This document shows positions 1,839 to 28,982 of a stretch of 32,000 nucleotides of DNA, piece after piece. The position numbers were made by a program, and so were the translations under genes. Every line of letters begins with the position of its first letter. Within the stretch, counting starts at the first letter, position 1. The notes below the pieces were generated by a model. The model did not search any database and was not told where the DNA came from. It saw only the letters and a list, made by a program, of their open reading frames with translations. This DNA comes from Acinetobacter wanghuae. GTDB taxonomy: Bacteria > Pseudomonadota > Gammaproteobacteria > Pseudomonadales > Moraxellaceae. Where the stretch lies: contig NZ_CP045650.1 of the NCBI RefSeq assembly GCF_009557235.1, forward strand, positions 1,260,001 through 1,292,000, read 5' to 3'.

Positions 1839-2057
1839 ATGGTGTCTTGTTAACGTGCATACATGCCGTCAAACGCAAGATTTATTTATAAATGTATTGG
1901 ACACATTAAAAACGTCATGCTGTGGAATTGCAACATCCTTTTACAAAGATAAGCTGAATTTTTAGGGGCTAAAATTAGAATTTTCTAGCTAAATGTGATG
2001 GATTGATTTTAAATTAATCAAACGGATAGCGAATTTGATAAATCTAAGCAACAGTTC

Positions 2058-2085
2058 TTGCAACTTCATTAAAAATCTCTATACT
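2058..2085 (+). promoter_or_regulatory. putative sigma70 promoter of ffs
   Basis: TTGCAA (2058-2063), 16-nt spacer, TATACT (2080-2085), about 12 nt upstream of the SRP RNA 5' helix. Confidence 0.5.
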
Positions 2086-2096
2086 CTGTTCTTGCA

Positions 2097-2211
<115 letters not shown>

Positions 2212-2481
2212 ATATTTATAACAAAAATCGTGTAACCTTCTCTGACTAGTCAATCATTGTATTTCTCAAATTCAAATCTTCTGTTTCAAGTCTATATTTT
2301 TTGCTTTAAAAGCTCTGCTCTGATTTAAATTTTATCCCACAAGACTTTAATCCCTTTTGAAATAATGGTTTTCTGTATAATTCAACTTGCTTGATCTTAC
2401 AACAAAAACAGATTTATACTGCATTCAGTGCTCAATATTTGGGTGCTCTAAACTTATATTTAAATTATAAAATTGATAACA

Positions 2482-2897
2482 ATGAATCAAGTATCTTTAA
2501 TTTATGCAGGGCAAGTTTTAAAATATTCCGTGCTTCGGAAGTTATTTTATTCCATTATTTTGGTTTTTTGTATCATTGGGAACTTATTGGTTTTATTGCC
2601 ATATGGAATGGTCAAATTAACGCAATATGGTTTTTCTGAATTCTCTTGGGTTCTGTTGATCTGTATTTTAGGATTAATTGAAATACACCTTATACCGTAT
2701 TTGAGAAATCCCATACAGAATCTCATCATAGAGCAAGTGGGGCGAAGTATTATTTATATTTGAATGGTATTCAGAATGGTGATTATCAGGTAAAACGAGT
2801 GCGTTGGTAGACTTATGAAAATAGCAAGATTGGCGATACTCATCTTGTGAAAGTAAGAGCTGGAAACTTAGGCATTCGATGGACTAAAGATGATTAA
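2482..2897 (+). pseudogene. decayed paralog of the 3284..4498 membrane-protein gene (N-terminal about 93 codons, internal deletion, in-frame stops, C-terminal remnant)
   Basis: N-terminus MNQVSLIYAGQVLKYS plus two TM helices parallels MHLKYKVYAGRILTYT plus two TM helices of the intact copy. The remnant ..YENSKIGDTHLVKVRAGNLGIRWTKDD* parallels ..YDSKQIGDEYQIKTYKGNLGIAWTQTN... It has the same TTAA stop/stop overlap with a recX 3' end. Stops at 2761 and 2808. Confidence 0.6.
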
Positions 2898-3160
2898 TCT
2901 TCATTATTCGGTTTACGCGTAATGGCTTTAATCATTGTATCCATTTCAAAACCACGGTACATCAAGAAACGAATTTGCTTGGCTTTGATTTTGTGATCTT
3001 TGCTGACTTCAACTGCATATTTTTTAACTTTCAGTTCATAGGCTTGTTGTGCCCAATCAGTTTCTTTCAGTTCTTCCGCAATTAAAGCGCTATCAATTTT
3101 TTTGCTTTTGAGCTTTATTTTAATTTGATTCGGGCCTTTACGCTTTTGGCTTGAGAGCAT
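2894..3160 (-). pseudogene. truncated recX paralog: C-terminal 88 codons only, ORF intact
   Basis: MLSSQKRKGPNQIKIKLKSKKIDSALIAEELKETDWAQQAYELKVKKY.. aligns end to end with residues about 116-205 of RecX (4495..5112). There are 14 mostly conservative substitutions and 2 small indels. A 32-nt run is identical (3027-3058 = 4625-4656). Confidence 0.85.
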
Positions 3161-3283
3161 GTTCTCTTTATTTAAATCTCATTCTTCATTGAATCTCCAT
3201 TCATATCCTAACTTTACTTTATCAATGGCTTATTGTGATTAAGCTTGTTATTCTGTGTCTAAATAAAACTATTTCTAATAAAA

Positions 3284-4498
3284 ATGCATTTAAAATATAA
3301 AGTTTATGCTGGTCGTATATTGACCTATACACCTCAACTTAAAGAAACACGATTACTGCTTTTGTGCGGCTTTGCTGTGTTTGTTTTTCCATTGTTGATT
3401 TACTTTAATCTTTCGCTGTGGAATGCAGCACAGCCTCTTTGGATGATTATTATCTCGATTACGGGGTCTGGTTTAATTGCTTTATTGTGTTTTGCTTTCC
3501 TCATTGAAACATGTAACTCAAAAATCGTCATTCATACTGATTCTTTGACGCAGCATTGTTGGTTTAAAACAAAAACAATTTATTATCGTGATATTCAAGG
3601 TTATCGTCTTGATCAAACACTCTCCATATATGGACAAGGTGGTCAGGTGATTTCAATACCACCACTTTTCTCACATCATTCAGAGATGTGTCAGATGATG
3701 AAAGTAAACTTTAAAAATTTAGCTGAAAATAATAGATCTGCTTATGATGAAGCTTTTTTTGCTCAAGTGGGGGAATTGTCTGCATCTGAAAAGCAGCAGT
3801 ATATTGATAAAGCCAACAGACTTAATCAATGGATTGGCACTGTATGGTTTGTGCTTTTTATTTTAAGTTTTTTTCAGGTGTCTGAATATTTCGAACTTGC
3901 ATTTTATTTAGGGGTATTTTTTTATTTCTACTTAAGTTATTCCGAACGGAGTTTGCTACGTATTCACTTTGTACCGACGGCATTACCCAATGCGCTGCAT
4001 GCCATTTGGATACTCATGACGGTTTCGGGCTTACTTATGCTTTATGAAGTAATTGATCATCAAGACTTTGCGCGCTATCTCATATTCAGTATTGCATGTA
4101 GTGTTGTTTTATTTATTTTATTGTTCATCACTGCAAATTTATTTGATCAAAACGCAGGGATTGGTCATGTGTTTGGCATATTATTCGTCATATTTATCCT
4201 TATGTTTATTTATTCGATGAGTTTTGTGAGTTTCTTAAATCGTATGGGGAAACAAGAGGTTTTATATACTCAAACCTATACAGTCATTGATAAAGATTAT
4301 TCGTCTGGTATTCGTGGGGCACCATTACGTTATTCTTTTGTTTTAAAGTCTTCATCAGGTACAGTGCTTTACAATATCGGTGTACTGTCATCACATTATG
4401 ATTCAAAACAAATTGGTGATGAATACCAAATTAAGACCTATAAAGGCAATTTAGGCATTGCTTGGACGCAAACCAATGGCTATTCCGAGGGCGATTAA
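3284..4498 (+). CDS. uncharacterised polytopic membrane protein (2 TM + PH-like soluble segment + about 5 TM + beta-rich C-terminal domain)
   Basis: 404-aa ORF with about 7 clear hydrophobic helices, in an AT-rich region. The stop codon overlaps the recX stop on the opposite strand (TTAA at 4495-4498). I recognise no family. Confidence 0.65.
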   Translation: MHLKYKVYAGRILTYTPQLKETRLLLLCGFAVFVFPLLIYFNLSLWNAAQPLWMIIISITGSGLIALLCFAFLIETCNSKIVIHTDSLTQHCWFKTKTIYYRDIQGYRLDQTLSIYGQGGQVISIPPLFSHHSEMCQMMKVNFKNLAENNRSAYDEAFFAQVGELSASEKQQYIDKANRLNQWIGTVWFVLFILSFFQVSEYFELAFYLGVFFYFYLSYSERSLLRIHFVPTALPNALHAIWILMTVSGLLMLYEVIDHQDFARYLIFSIACSVVLFILLFITANLFDQNAGIGHVFGILFVIFILMFIYSMSFVSFLNRMGKQEVLYTQTYTVIDKDYSSGIRGAPLRYSFVLKSSSGTVLYNIGVLSSHYDSKQIGDEYQIKTYKGNLGIAWTQTNGYSEGD

Positions 4499-5112
4499 TC
4501 CTCATTCGGTTTGCGGTTAATTGCTTTGATAATCGCATCCATTTCAAAGCCACGGTACATCAAAAACCGAATTTGTTTGGCTTTGAGTTTGGGTTCTTTT
4601 GCTACATCTACGCCATATTTTTTGACTTTCAGTTCATAGGCTTGTTGTGCCCAATCGGTTTCTTTGAGTTCATCTGCAATTAATGCGGTATCGACTTTTT
4701 TATTTTTGAGTTTCATTTTGATTTGATTCGGACCTTTGCCCTTGCGTTTTTGGCTCGACAACATCATTTCAGCAACGCGTTGGTCACTTTGATAGTTCTC
4801 GCGTGATAACTCATCGACTAATGTGATGACTTCATCGCGGTCATCTGCATATAACGCAAGCTTCTCAATCAGTTCAGCTTTGGCATATTCTTTACGGGTA
4901 AGGACTGCAAAGGCATAGGAACGTAAACGCGTGCCTGTTAGCCCTGGTCGTTTCTTTTCTTCTTTGTTGTCGCTAAACAAGCGCTCTTCAGGATCAAATT
5001 CAGCTTTGACAGGTGTGCTAAAAGCAGAGGTCTTGGTTTGTGGGTCATCCTCTCCAAATTGCTGTTTTAAAGCCTCGTAATCGAGCAATTTAGGGAATTT
5101 TGCTTCGGACAT
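4495..5112 (-). CDS. recX: recombination regulator RecX
   Basis: 205 aa, directly downstream of recA. Helical-repeat sequence (RSYAFAVLTRKEYAKAELIEKL.., KQIRFLMYRGFEMD) is typical of RecX. Confidence 0.9.
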   Translation of the reverse strand: MSEAKFPKLLDYEALKQQFGEDDPQTKTSAFSTPVKAEFDPEERLFSDNKEEKKRPGLTGTRLRSYAFAVLTRKEYAKAELIEKLALYADDRDEVITLVDELSRENYQSDQRVAEMMLSSQKRKGKGPNQIKMKLKNKKVDTALIADELKETDWAQQAYELKVKKYGVDVAKEPKLKAKQIRFLMYRGFEMDAIIKAINRKPNED

Positions 5113-5186: not shown

Positions 5187-6224
5187 TTATGCATCTAAAA
5201 GGTCGATGTCTTCATCTTTTTCTTCAACCACTTTGACAGGTGTCAGAAGCTGTTCGCGAATGAGTTTTTCAATGGTTTGCGCCATTTCTTTATGTTCTTC
5301 AAGATAACGAATCGTATTGTTCTTACCTTGACCAATTTTATCGCCTTGATAAGAATACCAAGCACCCGCTTTTTGAACAATTTCTTGGCTGACAGCGAGG
5401 TCAATCAATTCGCCTAAATGGTTCACGCCTTTACCGTAAAGGATTTGGAATAACGCTTCTTTAAATGGAGGCGCCATTTTGTTCTTCACCACTTTTACGC
5501 GGGTTTCTGAACCGACAATTTCATCGCCTTCTTTGACTTGACCAATACGACGAATGTCAAGACGAACAGAGGCATAGAATTTAAGCGCGTTACCGCCTGT
5601 TGTGGTTTCAGGGCTACCAAACATCACACCAATTTTCATACGAATTTGGTTAATGAAGATGACCATACAGTTTGAACGCTTGGCATTACCCGTAATTTTA
5701 CGGAGTGCTTGGCTCATCAAACGTGCTTGTAGCCCCATGTGCGAGTCACCCATTTCGCCTTCAATCTCAGCGCGAGGGGTCAAAGCTGCCACGGAATCGA
5801 CTACGATCATGTCAATGGCACCAGAGCGTACCAACATATCTGCGATTTCAAGCGCTTGCTCACCGTGATCGGGTTGCGATACAAGTAAGTTGTCGATATC
5901 TACACCAAGTTTACGCGCATATTGCGGATCAAGTGCGTGTTCGGCATCGATGAAGGCACATGTACCACCGGCTTTTTGACATTCGGCAATCGCTTGCAAT
6001 GTCATTGTGGTTTTACCTGAAGATTCAGGACCGTAGATTTCTACGATACGACCTTTGGGTAAACCACCAATACCGAGTGCGATATCTAGTGTGATTGAAC
6101 CAGTAGAAACAGCTTCAACTGCTTGAACGGTATTATCACCAAGACGCATTACTGAATTTTTACCAAACTGTTTTTCAATTTGGCTTAAGGCAGCGTTGAG
6201 CGCCTTGCTTTTATTATCATCCAT
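5187..6224 (-). CDS. recA: recombinase RecA
   Basis: 345 aa with Walker [10 protein letters not shown], plus [10 protein letters not shown] and the L1/L2 loop regions. Unmistakable RecA. Confidence 0.98.
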
Positions 6225-15455: not shown

Positions 15456-16625
15456 TTATTCTTCTTCAGCAGGTGGCACCAGCATAATTACCGAATCATT
15501 TAATAAGGCTGCCATATCTTCAAGAATATCTTCATCTGCAAAGTTTTCATCAAACAGAATATCTTGACCATCGGCAATTTGTTTAAGCGATTGAGTAAAT
15601 TGTTCTGAAATACAAATTCCTTCACCATTTGCCCAGAACATGATTTCATCATCTTCTTCGGTATAAAGTAGGCGAGAGGCAGGCTCAAGCATGATGCGAT
15701 AACCTTGATCAATCGCCTCCATCAAGTCGCCTGTACCAATTTCTTCAGCTTCAGGAATATTTTCAGGGTACTTCGGCTCAGACATCAAACTCATGATGGC
15801 ATCTTCAAGCACATTTGAATTGTGCAGTTGTTCCATGATTTTGGTTTTGAGATATTCAAGCTCATTGCCTGTCACTTCACCGACTTTTGAAACCTGATCA
15901 CGGATGATATCTGTGAGCGGATTACGCAAGGCTTCATTGTCAGAGAATTTATCACCCACACGATCCATCATGTCGCTGACATTCGGCATGCGGAAACCAA
16001 ATGAGTAGGTCAAGCAATCATCCTCTGCCACGCCGTAGTGTGAAAGACCGGGTGGTACATAGAGTAAATCACCGGGTGCAAGCACTTCATCAAAATTCAC
16101 ATCCATCTCTGGAAGTAATTTTAAGGGCTGACCCGCAACAAAGTCTGTTTCAGCATCGCACATTTGACCGAGTTGCCAACGGCGGTGACCATAGCCTTGT
16201 ACAAGGAAGACGTCATAAAAGTCGAAGTGTTTGCCGACAGAGCCACCTTGTGGGGCATAAGACACCATAATATCATCACGACGCCACTGTGGAATAAATG
16301 GGAATTTCTTCCACATTGCTGCCAAGTCAAATGAATAATGATCAATCGCTTGTACTAAAAGCGTCCATAGCTTTGGCATTTTTTGGAAATCAGCCTTAAG
16401 TAAAGGTGATGATTTCACTGACCATTGATTTGGATCACGATCTTTTTGCTTGATTAAACGTGCAGTCACGTTTTCATCTAAGGCAAGTTCAAGAACGTCA
16501 TTCGGTTCGAGAATGTTAGCAATCTCAGGAATTGCATTACGGACAAGGAGGGGTTTTTTCTGCCAATATTCAGCAAGGAATTGTTCAGCGGTGATACCGC
16601 CTAATACATCTAAAGGCTGGGACAT
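15456..16625 (-). CDS. roxA: JmjC/cupin ribosomal protein uL16 arginine hydroxylase (RoxA/YcfD-like)
   Basis: By recall it aligns along its length with E. coli YcfD (YWQKKPLLVRNA, WTLLVQAIDH, GGSVGKHFDFYDVFLVQGYGHRRW, PGDLLYVPPG.SH). Start taken at MSQPLDVLGG (ATG 16625). Confidence 0.8.
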   Translation of the reverse strand: MSQPLDVLGGITAEQFLAEYWQKKPLLVRNAIPEIANILEPNDVLELALDENVTARLIKQKDRDPNQWSVKSSPLLKADFQKMPKLWTLLVQAIDHYSFDLAAMWKKFPFIPQWRRDDIMVSYAPQGGSVGKHFDFYDVFLVQGYGHRRWQLGQMCDAETDFVAGQPLKLLPEMDVNFDEVLAPGDLLYVPPGLSHYGVAEDDCLTYSFGFRMPNVSDMMDRVGDKFSDNEALRNPLTDIIRDQVSKVGEVTGNELEYLKTKIMEQLHNSNVLEDAIMSLMSEPKYPENIPEAEEIGTGDLMEAIDQGYRIMLEPASRLLYTEEDDEIMFWANGEGICISEQFTQSLKQIADGQDILFDENFADEDILEDMAALLNDSVIMLVPPAEEE

Positions 16626-16801
16626 GATAAGGACTACAATTAAATTTGGCTTATTGTCCCTTGAACAGTAGAAGCTCTGCAAGTGACAGAGCTTGAAAAG
16701 CGTGTATTTTCTTGTTGATACGGCTTACAAAAGGGTATCTTTAATAATTGAACATAACTGGTTTTAAAAAATCAGAATTTCTATTTTGGGGTTATAATTT
16801 C

Positions 16802-16829
16802 ATTTCGTATAACAGCCATTATGTTAAAT
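16802..16829 (+). other. pdif (XerC/XerD recombination) site, C/D orientation
   Basis: ATTTCGTATAA-CAGCCA-TTATGTTAAAT. The XerD arm is 11/11 identical to the E. coli dif XerD arm. The XerC arm equals the Acinetobacter plasmid pdif/Re27 XerC arm. Confidence 0.8.
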
Positions 16830-16835
16830 GGATGT

Positions 16836-16860
16836 AAAAAGGCCTCAAATTTGAGGCCTA
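16836..16860 (-). terminator. terminator of the cassette gene (inside the dif module)
   Basis: aggcctcaa / ttgaggcct stem with a T-run on the minus strand. Confidence 0.75.
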
Positions 16861-16886
16861 TAAATTCTTCGGTATTACACCATATA

Positions 16887-17639
16887 TTATTCAAGAGGCA
16901 ACTTGAGAATTGTGCCCTTTGCTACTGAATAAGCTTCTACATGACCAGAAATTTTTGCCTGATCATCAACATAGTGAGCATGAAAATACTCATTTGGGTG
17001 GGTTACTACACTTTCTAATTGAGGACCACTATAGATTCCAATCAATTGTCCTTGAGCATTAAGATTATTAAAAATATGCTTTTCTACATGATGTTTTTTT
17101 GTATGAGGGGCATGGCTGAATGTGTGCTCATTCATTGTCTGAGTTTTTTTACCTGTTACAACATGCCAACGTAATTCAGGATATTTCCCTTGCAGACGAA
17201 ATACAAACGGTTGTTCAGTTGATAATCCTAATCGTTTTGCCTCTTTGAGAATGAATTCTTCTAATTGGGATTGATTCATATCCACGGGTAAGGAAATATC
17301 ATGCCATTTCGATACTTGGCCACTTGCGAAAAGAAAGGCCTGTTCATTAGGATCATGAGGCAAGATTTTTCCTTCTAAATCACTACCTGGACTGACTAGA
17401 ATTTTGCCATCAATTTGAATAATTTCACCTGTACGTCCCGCAAGTGCCCCTAGCCCCCAGGTATTTTCCTGTTGTGGTACTTCTGATAGTTTAATAGTGC
17501 CTCGATCATCACCGGTATAGATCATATGTTTAAAGTTACCGGAATGAGTAAATTTGAAAGGCATATCTGCAGCAATAGAACTAGTAGTGATTGTACTAGC
17601 AATAGCTAAGATGCTGAAAAGACGATTTAAATGATTCAT
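16887..17639 (-). CDS. secreted protein with alpha-acetolactate decarboxylase-like (ALDC) fold
   Basis: Sec signal peptide (..TSSIA/ADM). The pattern HMIYTGDDRGTIKLSEV...GLGALAGRTGEIIQIDGKI and the C-terminal FHAHYVDDQAKISGHV resemble ALDC motifs (S.L..G.YDG, GIGTF..LDGELI, GYHLHF.....GGHV). Similarity judged by eye only. Confidence 0.5.
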   Translation of the reverse strand: MNHLNRLFSILAIASTITTSSIAADMPFKFTHSGNFKHMIYTGDDRGTIKLSEVPQQENTWGLGALAGRTGEIIQIDGKILVSPGSDLEGKILPHDPNEQAFLFASGQVSKWHDISLPVDMNQSQLEEFILKEAKRLGLSTEQPFVFRLQGKYPELRWHVVTGKKTQTMNEHTFSHAPHTKKHHVEKHIFNNLNAQGQLIGIYSGPQLESVVTHPNEYFHAHYVDDQAKISGHVEAYSVAKGTILKLPLE

Positions 17640-17759
17640 TTTGATTTCAATATTTAGAGAGTATAGCTATTAGAAGAGAAACCAATAACTTAGTCAATCT
17701 GAACAAATGATTACTCAAAGTTATTATAATTTCGATATTCTGAAGTTAAGAATCTCTAA

Positions 17760-17787
17760 AATTAACATAATACACCTTATACGAAAT
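17760..17787 (-). other. pdif (XerC/XerD recombination) site, D/C orientation on the + strand
   Basis: The minus strand reads ATTTCGTATAA-GGTGTA-TTATGTTAATT, which as far as I recall matches the Re27/pdif sequence flanking blaOXA-24 modules on Acinetobacter plasmids. Confidence 0.8.
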
Positions 17788-17829
17788 GCTATTTTTTATT
17801 TCATATAAATTATGGTCTTATCATATAGT

Positions 17830-17862
17830 AAAAAGCCAAATCATCACCGGTTGGGCTTTTTT
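17830..17862. terminator. orphan terminator-like hairpin flanked by A- and T-runs
   Basis: aaaaagccaa..ttgggctttttt. No ORF of 60 aa or more ends here on either strand. Confidence 0.4.
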
Positions 17863-17993
17863 AATATTTTTTTCATGGTTCACGCTTACTTATTAAGCAA
17901 TGTTCCACGACCTTGTTTAGAAAAAATAATTTCGATCAGTTGTATTCATCTGAGCTAAGAGAGGACTGTTTGTTGAACGATCAGATTACAATC

Positions 17994-18028
17994 AAAAAAA
18001 ACCGAGTCATTTAACTCGGTTTTTTTTA
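17994..18028. terminator. bidirectional terminator downstream of maf
   Basis: aaaaaaa-accgagt / actcggt-tttttttt. Confidence 0.75.
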
Positions 18029-18043
18029 ATAAACATTAGAAAA

Positions 18044-18637
18044 TTAAGGCACTAAAATTTTTAATTCACGCAAAATTCTACAGAGTTGAATCATCGGCAT
18101 ACCCATCAACGTGGTCTGGTCTTGACCGATCATTTCTTCAAATAGGCTAATGCCTAAGCTTTCACATTTAAAACTGCCGGCACAATGAAAAGGCTGTTCA
18201 ATTTCAATATAACGCTCAATTTCAGGCAAGCTCAGTTTGCGGAACTTGACTTTATAATGTTCAACAAGCGTTTGTTCGAAACCCGTAGATTGGTGTTGAA
18301 CACTGAGCGCGGTACTGAAATAAACAATCTTATCTGAATTGGCTTGTAACTGACGAATGGCTTTGTCTGCAGTAAGTGGCTTACCAATAAAAATATCAGG
18401 TGCACCTTCACGCCAAGCGACTTGATCAGATCCAATGACAATCGCATCGGGGTGTAAATTGGCAACATGTTGGGCTTTCTCAAAAGCCAAACGTTTTGCT
18501 AAAACATCAGCATGGTTTTCACCACGCGGAGATTCATCAATATCAGGGACGATGGTGCTATATTGCAAACGCAAACGATCCATCAGTTCTTTGCGAGTTT
18601 GGCTGCTTGAAGCCAAAATGATTTTAGGCGCGTTCAT
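18044..18637 (-). CDS. maf: Maf-like nucleoside triphosphate pyrophosphatase
   Basis: IILASSSQTRKELMDRL, IVIGSDQV, KP and AGSFK(C)E motifs of the Maf family. The ATG at 18637 overlaps the upstream stop (TAATG). Confidence 0.85.
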   Translation of the reverse strand: MNAPKIILASSSQTRKELMDRLRLQYSTIVPDIDESPRGENHADVLAKRLAFEKAQHVANLHPDAIVIGSDQVAWREGAPDIFIGKPLTADKAIRQLQANSDKIVYFSTALSVQHQSTGFEQTLVEHYKVKFRKLSLPEIERYIEIEQPFHCAGSFKCESLGISLFEEMIGQDQTTLMGMPMIQLCRILRELKILVP

Positions 18638-28014: not shown

Positions 28015-28025
28015 TCATTGACACG

Positions 28026-28057
28026 AAAAAGCTCAACGTTCAGTTGGGCTTTTTTTA
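28026..28057 (+). terminator. glnS terminator
   Basis: agctcaac / gttgggct stem followed by TTTTTTT. Confidence 0.7.
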
Positions 28058-28982
28058 TGGAAAATAAAAAAATGATCGTACGTGATAAAAGTAATAGCTT
28101 CGGATTGTTATTTGCATGGCATGGCACGATTTTGCCAAAAGTGCTACCCGCTTTAGTGTTGGTATTTAGCCTGTCTGCGATTTTGGTTTATCTTCGGCAT
28201 GCACATTTAATGAGTTTTCCGGCAGTGCCAGCCATCGGGTTTACTATCTTTGGTGTCATTCTGTCGATATTTTTAAGTTTTCGAAATAATGCATGCTATG
28301 ACCGTTGGTGGGAAGGGCGCAAGCTCTGGGGTGCTTTAATCGCAACGACACGTCATTTAAGCCGTGATAGCTATGTGTTAGATGATCAAGCCCGTGAAGT
28401 GCTTTTGCAGCGTATGATGCTATTTACGCATTTATTACGTGATCGTTACGTCAAAGTTCAAACAGTATTCAACATTATCAAGACGTGACAGCATTCACTG
28501 AGCAAGATTTTCAAAGTATTCGCAATCGTGTGAATCCATCGCAATGGGTTTTAGAGCAGATCCAAAAAGATTTGGTGAGTCGTTATCGGCAGGGTGAAAT
28601 CAGCGATATTATTTACCATCAATTAAATCAGCATACCGTTGCCTTGGGTAATATTCAAGCGGGATGTGATCGTATTCTATCAACACCATTGCCTTTTGCT
28701 TATTCAGTACTTTTACATCGTGCGGTGTATTCGTTTTGCTTTATCTTACCCTTTAGCTTGGAAGCAAGCCTCGGGCTTTGGGCACCCATTCTCGTGGTGT
28801 TAATTGCCTATCTGTTTTTGGGCTTAGACGAACTGAGCAGTGAATTGGAAGAGCCCTTTGGCACACAAGATAACGACCTAGCGCTCGATTCAATCGTACG
28901 TTTAATTGAGCGTGAAACCTTAAGCTCAATGGATAAAGAGATTCCTGAGTCATTGGTAGCTCAAAAAGGCTTCATTACCTAA
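28057..28982 (+). pseudogene. bestrophin-family (YneE/UPF0187) anion channel, split by a 1-nt frameshift into ORFs 28018..28488 and 28485..28982
   Basis: The N-terminal ORF has TM helices and the RNNACYDRWWEGRKLW motif. The C-terminal ORF has the STPLPFAY motif and TM helices. Frame B is open from 28443 and reads LRQSSKQIQHYQDV. Adding one T to the TT at 28446-28447 joins ..HLLRDR to LRQSS.., giving a protein of about 300 aa. Confidence 0.75.

Follow-up and report, generated by a model that had tools for sequence, protein, structure and literature searches.

How does a gene bounded by plasmid-type recombination sites come to lie between two core genes of a bacterial chromosome? The question is raised by a 986 bp segment in the gap between maf and a JmjC/RoxA-like gene (hereafter roxA) of Acinetobacter wanghuae, which lies within a 32,000-nucleotide stretch of contig NZ_CP045650.1 (positions 1,260,001 to 1,292,000); the whole of this stretch is referred to here as the window. 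Among Acinetobacter plasmids, dif modules, which are flanked by pdif sites for the recombinases XerC and XerD, are a main route by which carbapenem, tetracycline and macrolide resistance genes are shuffled, and both the movement of single modules and the involvement of the chromosome are still debated. The segment in the maf–roxA gap is best explained, with a probability of roughly 0.8, as a D-type dif module that carries one self-contained gene and is probably moved by the XerC and XerD of the host. The D type is defined by inverted sites with the XerD-binding arms inside (PMC13141974), and this is the arrangement found.

The two pdif sites and the module interior

The 986 bp comprise one open reading frame (ORF), the DNA upstream of it and a terminator of its own, enclosed by the two sites as follows, where ALDC denotes acetolactate decarboxylase.

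16802–16829, plus strand: left pdif site, ATTTCGTATAA-CAGCCA-TTATGTTAAAT (XerC arm, spacer, XerD arm), XerD arm toward the cargo gene
17760–17787, minus strand: right pdif site, ATTTCGTATAA-GGTGTA-TTATGTTAATT, XerD arm toward the cargo gene
16887–17639, minus strand: cargo gene (WP_153371340.1), 250 amino acids, predicted ALDC fold, N-terminal signal-peptide-like segment
16840–16859, minus strand: intrinsic terminator of the cargo gene, inside the module; 8 bp stem with five G-C pairs, then a T-run
17640–17759, minus strand: upstream region of 120 bp, inside the module
17697–17692 (TTGACT) and 17674–17669 (TCTAAT), minus strand: candidate promoter with a 17-nt gap, proposed by eye

Both sites are 28 bp long, with an 11-6-11 geometry and no mismatch to the pdif consensus, and are inverted with respect to each other, exactly as a preliminary description of this DNA had reported. 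A degenerate pdif pattern allowing up to three mismatches retrieved these two sites alone from the 32 kb, against a chance expectation of 0.01 derived from dinucleotide-preserving shuffles, and more than 800 Acinetobacter plasmids carry matching site sequences. The ATAA-N6-TTAT core, which is critical for binding and cutting by XerC and XerD (PMC11705084), is intact in both. The two spacers differ at five of six positions; GGTGTA is the central region of xrs06 and xrs105, which recombine in vivo in a XerC-dependent manner (PMC11705084). Next to the XerD arm of the right site, on its inner side, a stretch of about 15 nt (17745–17759, minus strand, TTAGAGATTCTTAAC) is common to unrelated D modules in about 800 plasmids and to the module of another Acinetobacter species (L034; L-numbers are the labels of retrieved comparison loci and contigs), so that on the D side conservation reaches past the 28 bp core.

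The content of the cassette given in the preliminary description, namely a single gene with about 120 bp of upstream DNA and its own terminator, was reproduced by the ORF and hairpin scans. The candidate promoter was not among the listed results of a promoter scan of the module, and Rfam and tRNA scans returned no RNA genes within or near it. The same description had also assigned the product to signal-peptide proteins with an ALDC-like fold, an assignment that is now supported by several lines of evidence. The cargo protein matches Pfam family AAL_decarboxy (PF03306) with 52.6 bits (cut-off 25; E = 4.8e-14). A phmmer search of the single protein against the PDB gave no match, and a profile built from 37 sequences gave weak matches to ALDCs. 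The AlphaFold2 model (predicted local distance difference test score, pLDDT, of 87; predicted template-modelling score of 0.81) retrieved solved ALDCs, including 6j3d, 5xne and 4bt2, as the top Foldseek matches (E of about 1e-14), with template-modelling scores of 0.65–0.69 at 12–18% identity. His220, His222 and His233 are invariant in the 37 homologues, show the 2/11 spacing of the zinc ligands of ALDC and align with the HLH...GH motif of 5xne. Residues 1–22 are hydrophobic with low pLDDT values and have SIA/AD at their end, as would suit a signal peptide.

The cargo may thus be a secreted or periplasmic enzyme with a zinc-type ALDC fold. The classical cytoplasmic role of such enzymes, the conversion of acetolactate to acetoin, is unlikely for this protein given its signal-peptide-like N-terminus and the lack of als or bud neighbours. 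Close relatives are rare. Those that are 76 and 67% identical occur in contexts without pdif sites, one of them beside a luciferase-like monooxygenase gene, and the nearest outside Acinetobacter are about 50% identical; the few with a named source come from metagenome-assembled genomes (MAGs) of Hydrogenophaga or Rubrivivax.

Copies of the module and the DNA around it

The same 986 bp, 98–99.9% identical, were found in at least 13 other samples (including SRR19201359, ERR11525570, ERR15401720 and ERZ26870320), and the flanking contexts other than that of the window number at least five. In every copy (L082–L088 and L099–L104) nucleotide similarity to the window, at 98.2–99.9%, starts and stops inside the pdif sites. 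The segment is therefore a discrete unit that recurs in different contexts with its borders at the sites, and the earlier proposal of a module bounded by Xer sites holds in independent copies. In L102, a 161 kb MAG contig in which the module lies downstream of nrdAB, 928 of 930 interior positions are identical to the window (99.8%), whereas outside the sites the 130 nt beyond one of them are 65% identical and the other flanks about 52%. Across 14 copies both XerD arms are invariant, and any variation within the sites affects the XerC arms or the spacer bases nearest to them. One site has the spacer GGTGTA or CGTGTA; that of the other is CAGCCA, CCGCCA, CGGCCA or TCGCCA. Exchange within the sites, with the outer (XerC) half contributed by the recipient, would leave just such a footprint. 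At the protein level, the identical cargo is encoded on nine contigs and variants of 97–99.6% amino-acid identity on six more, while the exact RoxA and Maf proteins occur on only two, both from A. wanghuae.

The contexts of these copies are diverse. L082 has a chromosome-like setting with genes for a hexapeptide transferase and PBP5 as well as surE and nlpD, and its flank matches no plasmid, so that the context is probably chromosomal. In L102 an intact insertion sequence (IS) of the IS1202 family lies 5 bp from the XerC arm and is followed by an ars operon. The flank of L083 is the sequence found directly after the pdif site that closes the sulP dif module of pMsp11 and the chrAB dif module of p5AsACE, and the module occupies the exact slot of these two. 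L084 and L099 each have another, different short flank. Many of the contigs that carry a copy measure only about 1 kb and terminate in incomplete pdif sites, which is a reported signature of dif modules in short-read assemblies (PMC13141974).

The maf–roxA locus itself was surveyed by scanning one genome per species with the RoxA-like protein, which gave 79 loci, none of them with a homologue of the cargo. The two genes are co-linear in 55 species, with a gap of 60 bp or less in 24, and in 53 of the 55 no pdif site lies between them. In the two species that have pdif sites at the same spot the cargo is another one: in L034 (Acinetobacter sp. B51) two good sites, at positions homologous to those in the window and with the same orientation, enclose a different ORF of 76 amino acids, and L004, a MAG, has one site and an ORF of 214 amino acids. 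Neither of these cargoes matched PLSDB plasmids beyond the site sequences. In L011 (A. faecalis) both outer flanks are joined, with ATTTCG followed by IS-like sequence, in what looks like a deletion scar. More generally, the gap is an insertion hotspot in Acinetobacter (L008–L032), with unrelated inserts of 0.3–3.8 kb that include IS elements, a TonB-dependent receptor, Bap-like repeat proteins and a PP2C-like gene together with an unknown gene, among others, none of them with pdif sites. Since most species have no pdif site here and the content varies between species, the pdif pair is an acquired feature that is patchily shared. Empty sites, which the preliminary description had suggested looking for, do occur in relatives, and the possibility it had raised of a segment fixed and ancestral in all relatives is contradicted by the patchy pair and its differing content.

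Two further observations concern this locus. Beside the small D module of L034, positions 5324–5823 hold a SMI1/KNR4-like gene followed by a degenerate pdif-like site (5796–5823), and this may represent a second, decayed module at that chromosomal locus. A further plasmid-type fragment occurs at 5907–5968 of L001 and at 3928–3975 of L004.

The DNA immediately outside the sites of the window, together with the neighbouring genes, is organized as follows.

17788–17932, no strand assigned: relic of Rep_3/OrfX plasmid backbones (orfX-distal end), outside the module, to the right of the GGTGTA site
16777–16796, minus strand: 20-mer resembling the terminal inverted repeat of IS1202-family elements, TATAACCCCAAAATAGAAAT, outside the module, exactly 5 nt from the XerC arm
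15456–16625, minus strand: JmjC/RoxA-like gene, left neighbour of the module
18044–18637, minus strand: maf, right neighbour of the module
17991–18030, minus strand: terminator hairpin of maf (inverted repeat I5), marking the right-side end of native chromosomal sequence

The relic on the right, of about 140 bp, matches 337 plasmid records (335 of them from Acinetobacter) at 75–81% identity. In the plasmids examined its counterpart lies between the stop codon of orfX, annotated as a 'plasmid replication DNA-binding protein' and located downstream of repA/repM, and the backbone pdif site, the spacer of which is GGTGTA, CGTGTA or GGCGTA. With this backbone end beside the GGTGTA site, the chromosomal landing pad appears to be derived from a Rep_3/OrfX plasmid, and the traffic from plasmid to chromosome that had been suspected earlier gains support. 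The relic contains a bidirectional terminator-like hairpin (approximately 17830–17862) and two GTTCCACG-type boxes (17878–17884 and 17902–17909) about 25 nt apart, which are invariant in six aligned plasmids, are partly decayed in the chromosomal copies and could be a protein-binding or accessory element. A tblastn search for coding remnants of orfX found nothing significant in the window or in related gaps. In L102, too, the module is preceded by this relic, and L004, L034 and L011 contain it as well; in the last three the position of the maf terminator hairpin is kept as well.

On the left, 21 of 25 nt in the region of the 20-mer are shared with the end of the intact IS that adjoins the module in L102, and an intact IS1202-family element is also present in L001. 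Elements of this family insert at a distance of 5 bp from pdif and dif sites, on their XerC side (PMC10132070), and one of them probably once sat beside the left site. The left flank (16626–16801) has no match to plasmids and, apart from the IS-like 20-mer, is thus native chromosomal DNA. Both the plasmid remnant on the right and the IS1202-like repeat on the left had been overlooked in the preliminary description.

The window as a whole is core A. wanghuae chromosome, with lpxA, the signal recognition particle (SRP) RNA gene, recX, recA, pgk, fba, glnS and trmA. The cargo and the RoxA-like protein (WP_153371339.1) have exact A. wanghuae matches on a 2.77 Mb contig and on one draft contig; the 2.77 Mb chromosome encodes QGA10946.1. 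A location between housekeeping genes, as originally described, is thereby confirmed, and the lack of a nearby recombinase gene is supported, no site-specific or tyrosine recombinase and no transposase being found among the scanned ORFs of at least 150 amino acids. Elsewhere in the window, two overlapping ORFs on the plus strand (28018–28488 and 28485–28982) each correspond to one half of Pfam Bestrophin_2, and the pair looks like a split or frameshifted gene or a sequencing error. Positions 2000–5000, between the SRP RNA gene (2107–2203) and recX, have a GC content of 0.34–0.36 against about 0.40 in the remainder, and a 404-amino-acid ORF in this low-GC stretch (3284–4498, plus strand) has no Pfam match.

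Proposed route of movement and alternative explanations

XerC and XerD of A. baumannii bind and cleave pdif-type sites; pairs that share a central region (GGTGTA, or T/CCGCCA) undergo XerC-dependent recombination between replicons with formation of cointegrates, and inverted pairs or pairs with different spacers give no excision (PMC11705084). Since the two sites flanking the cargo gene are inverted and their spacers are unrelated, they are not expected to recombine with each other, so that the module should be stable in place. Its movement would most likely depend on the XerC and XerD of the host, the module itself encoding no recombinase. Recombination between a chromosomal site and a plasmid pdif site of matching spacer, of the GGTGTA class, would fuse the two replicons, and recombination at the other compatible pair, of the C(A/C)GCCA class, would then separate them with their D modules swapped. 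The recurrence of the module and the varied content of the maf–roxA locus agree with this scheme.

Several points weigh against a D module that moves in this way. Catalysis by XerC and XerD at these two sites, the cointegrate route and recombination there today are inferred, and the CAGCCA spacer is one base off the CCGCCA class tested previously (PMC11705084). Within the species, the only two assemblies in existence both have the module. The check for the same module in plasmid pdif arrays that the preliminary description had proposed turned out negative, the exact module being absent from the 72,556 plasmids of PLSDB, in which 839 records match the pdif ends only; one plasmid, NZ_CP024012, carries an 86% identical cargo gene without the same bracketing. 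Flanks of plasmid type occur in chromosomes too, so that L083 may belong to either kind of replicon. Lastly, the first arrival of pdif sites at a locus without them in most species is not explicable by Xer recombination alone.

A tentative extension of the D-module reading is that the pdif pair between maf and roxA, together with the orfX-end relic, forms a working chromosomal docking platform that stands in for a backbone C module. The chromosome would then trade D modules with resident plasmids by Xer-mediated cointegration and resolution, once an orfX-end element with a site of the GGTGTA class had been seeded at several chromosomal loci, namely at maf–roxA of three or four species and, in L102, downstream of nrdB. 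The GTTCCACG boxes could in that case be a cis-acting accessory element or one bound by OrfX; work on A. baumannii plasmids reportedly found no such accessory sequences near two of the sites tested there.

Module and flanks might instead have arrived as one larger block, through homologous recombination in the course of natural transformation, or when a plasmid fragment integrated illegitimately or by means of an IS, with the pdif sites as inert relics. The relic and the region upstream of roxA are indeed common to L004, L011 and L034 at 72–85% identity, from which it follows that the platform either predates the module or moved as a block; chromosomal plasmid fragments with pdif sites that were placed by ISs have been published (PMC10132070), and the record of the gap as a hotspot for many unrelated inserts is also compatible with such an event. 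Despite the common platform, however, the content between the sites is wholly different in the window, L034 and L004, and the platform around the nearly identical module of L102 has only 65% identity, as fits exchange at the sites. Moreover, both sites are intact and match the consensus while the neighbouring GTTCCACG boxes are partly decayed. Arrival as a block is, on balance, rather unlikely.

Integrative elements exploiting Xer (IMEX), such as CTX phage and the gonococcal genetic island, use the dif site of the replication terminus and have directly repeated dif-like flanks. Were one of the present sites the terminus dif (dif1), the segment could be an integration of this type, and the XerD arm of the left site, TTATGTTAAAT, is the same as that of the chromosomal dif sites of Acinetobacter and E. 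coli (PMC10132070, Table 5). The two sites are inverted rather than direct, however, and most related species lack a site at this locus; neither spacer is the TGTATA of five of the six Acinetobacter terminus dif sites in that table, and the cumulative GC skew rises steadily over the 32 kb, with no switch that would place the terminus here. Skew and spacers led to the rejection of a terminus dif, which the preliminary description had also discounted, and an IMEX-type origin is highly improbable. As for ancestral or chance intergenic repeats without a role in mobility, an AT-rich intergenic setting is all that speaks for them; against them stand the expectation of 0.01 sites, the matching sequences in more than 800 Acinetobacter plasmids, the recurrence of the module in other contexts with borders at the sites and the empty sites of relatives, by which this explanation is refuted and hardly conceivable.

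Comparison with known systems

The cargo resembles the ALDCs (AlsD/BudA, PF03306; 4BT2, 5XNE, 6J3D) in its fold, in a Pfam score above the gathering threshold and in the His-x-His...His motif. It differs from them in the N-terminal signal-peptide-like segment, in its low identity to the solved structures, none of which was recovered as a PDB chain by phmmer, and in the genomic setting, where neither an acetolactate synthase nor a butanediol gene adjoins it. The left flank likewise recalls the IS1202-family 'dif-site hunter' ISs (ISAjo2, ISAba71) through the terminal-repeat-like 20-mer at 5 nt from the XerC arm. These elements are about 1.5 kb long, with a TnsB-like transposase and TGT...ACA repeats, whereas the window holds the 20-nt repeat-like sequence only, lacks a transposase gene and a second IS end, and can contain at most a remnant.

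The closest likeness is to the dif modules of Rep_3/OrfX plasmids, the D modules of Blackwell and Hall, among which are those with sulP, chrAB, tet39 and OXA-24. The window shares with them the inverted 28 bp pdif sites with inward XerD arms, both spacer classes (GGTGTA and C(A/C)GCCA) and a single small cargo unit that has its own terminator and promoter, the latter a candidate in the window, but no recombinase. In pMsp11 the orfX-end element is followed by a GGTGTA site and then by a D module, an order mirrored by the right junction in the window. The copy described here differs in being chromosomal, between core genes, and in its absence as an exact module from PLSDB. On the C side it is adjoined by chromosomal DNA and the 140 bp backbone relic rather than by a C module, so that an accessory region of a Rep_3/OrfX plasmid with alternating C modules, which is typical of D modules and not obligatory, is missing from its surroundings; another copy, that of L083, adjoins C-side sequence of plasmid type. 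A secreted protein with an ALDC fold is not among the reported dif-module cargoes.

Modules of this kind had already been described in chromosomes in 2019, 2023 and 2026, among them terC-dif in A. indicus SGAir0564 and add-dif in SWBY1 (PMC6449649) and the dif-module islands of strain M10 (PMC12907356). The three cases resemble the window in having pdif-like sites far from the terminus dif and nearer to plasmid pdif than to dif1, and in modules common to plasmids and chromosomes; those of M10 also have CAGCCA and GGTGTA spacers (PMC12907356). The view in the preliminary description that dif modules are chiefly plasmid-borne and a chromosomal case novel was therefore overstated, since secondary chromosomal dif sites and modules (PMC6449649, PMC12907356) and chromosomal plasmid fragments with pdif sites (PMC10132070) were on record. 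Its claim of a new cargo class fares better, no paper in the library searched pairing 'acetolactate decarboxylase' with 'pdif'.

No new kind of element is revealed by this locus. It is a clean natural example in which a near-identical module occurs in three chromosome-like contexts and beside plasmid-type DNA, with a crossover footprint only in the XerC half of the sites and a backbone relic at the chromosomal junction, and it offers a tractable chromosomal site for tests of the model of cointegrate resolution. Compared with the published chromosomal modules, that of A. wanghuae is a single isolated module and not part of an island, and what appears new in it is the cargo class, the use of one chromosomal slot by different D modules in three species and the orfX-end relic of a Rep_3/OrfX plasmid at the junction.

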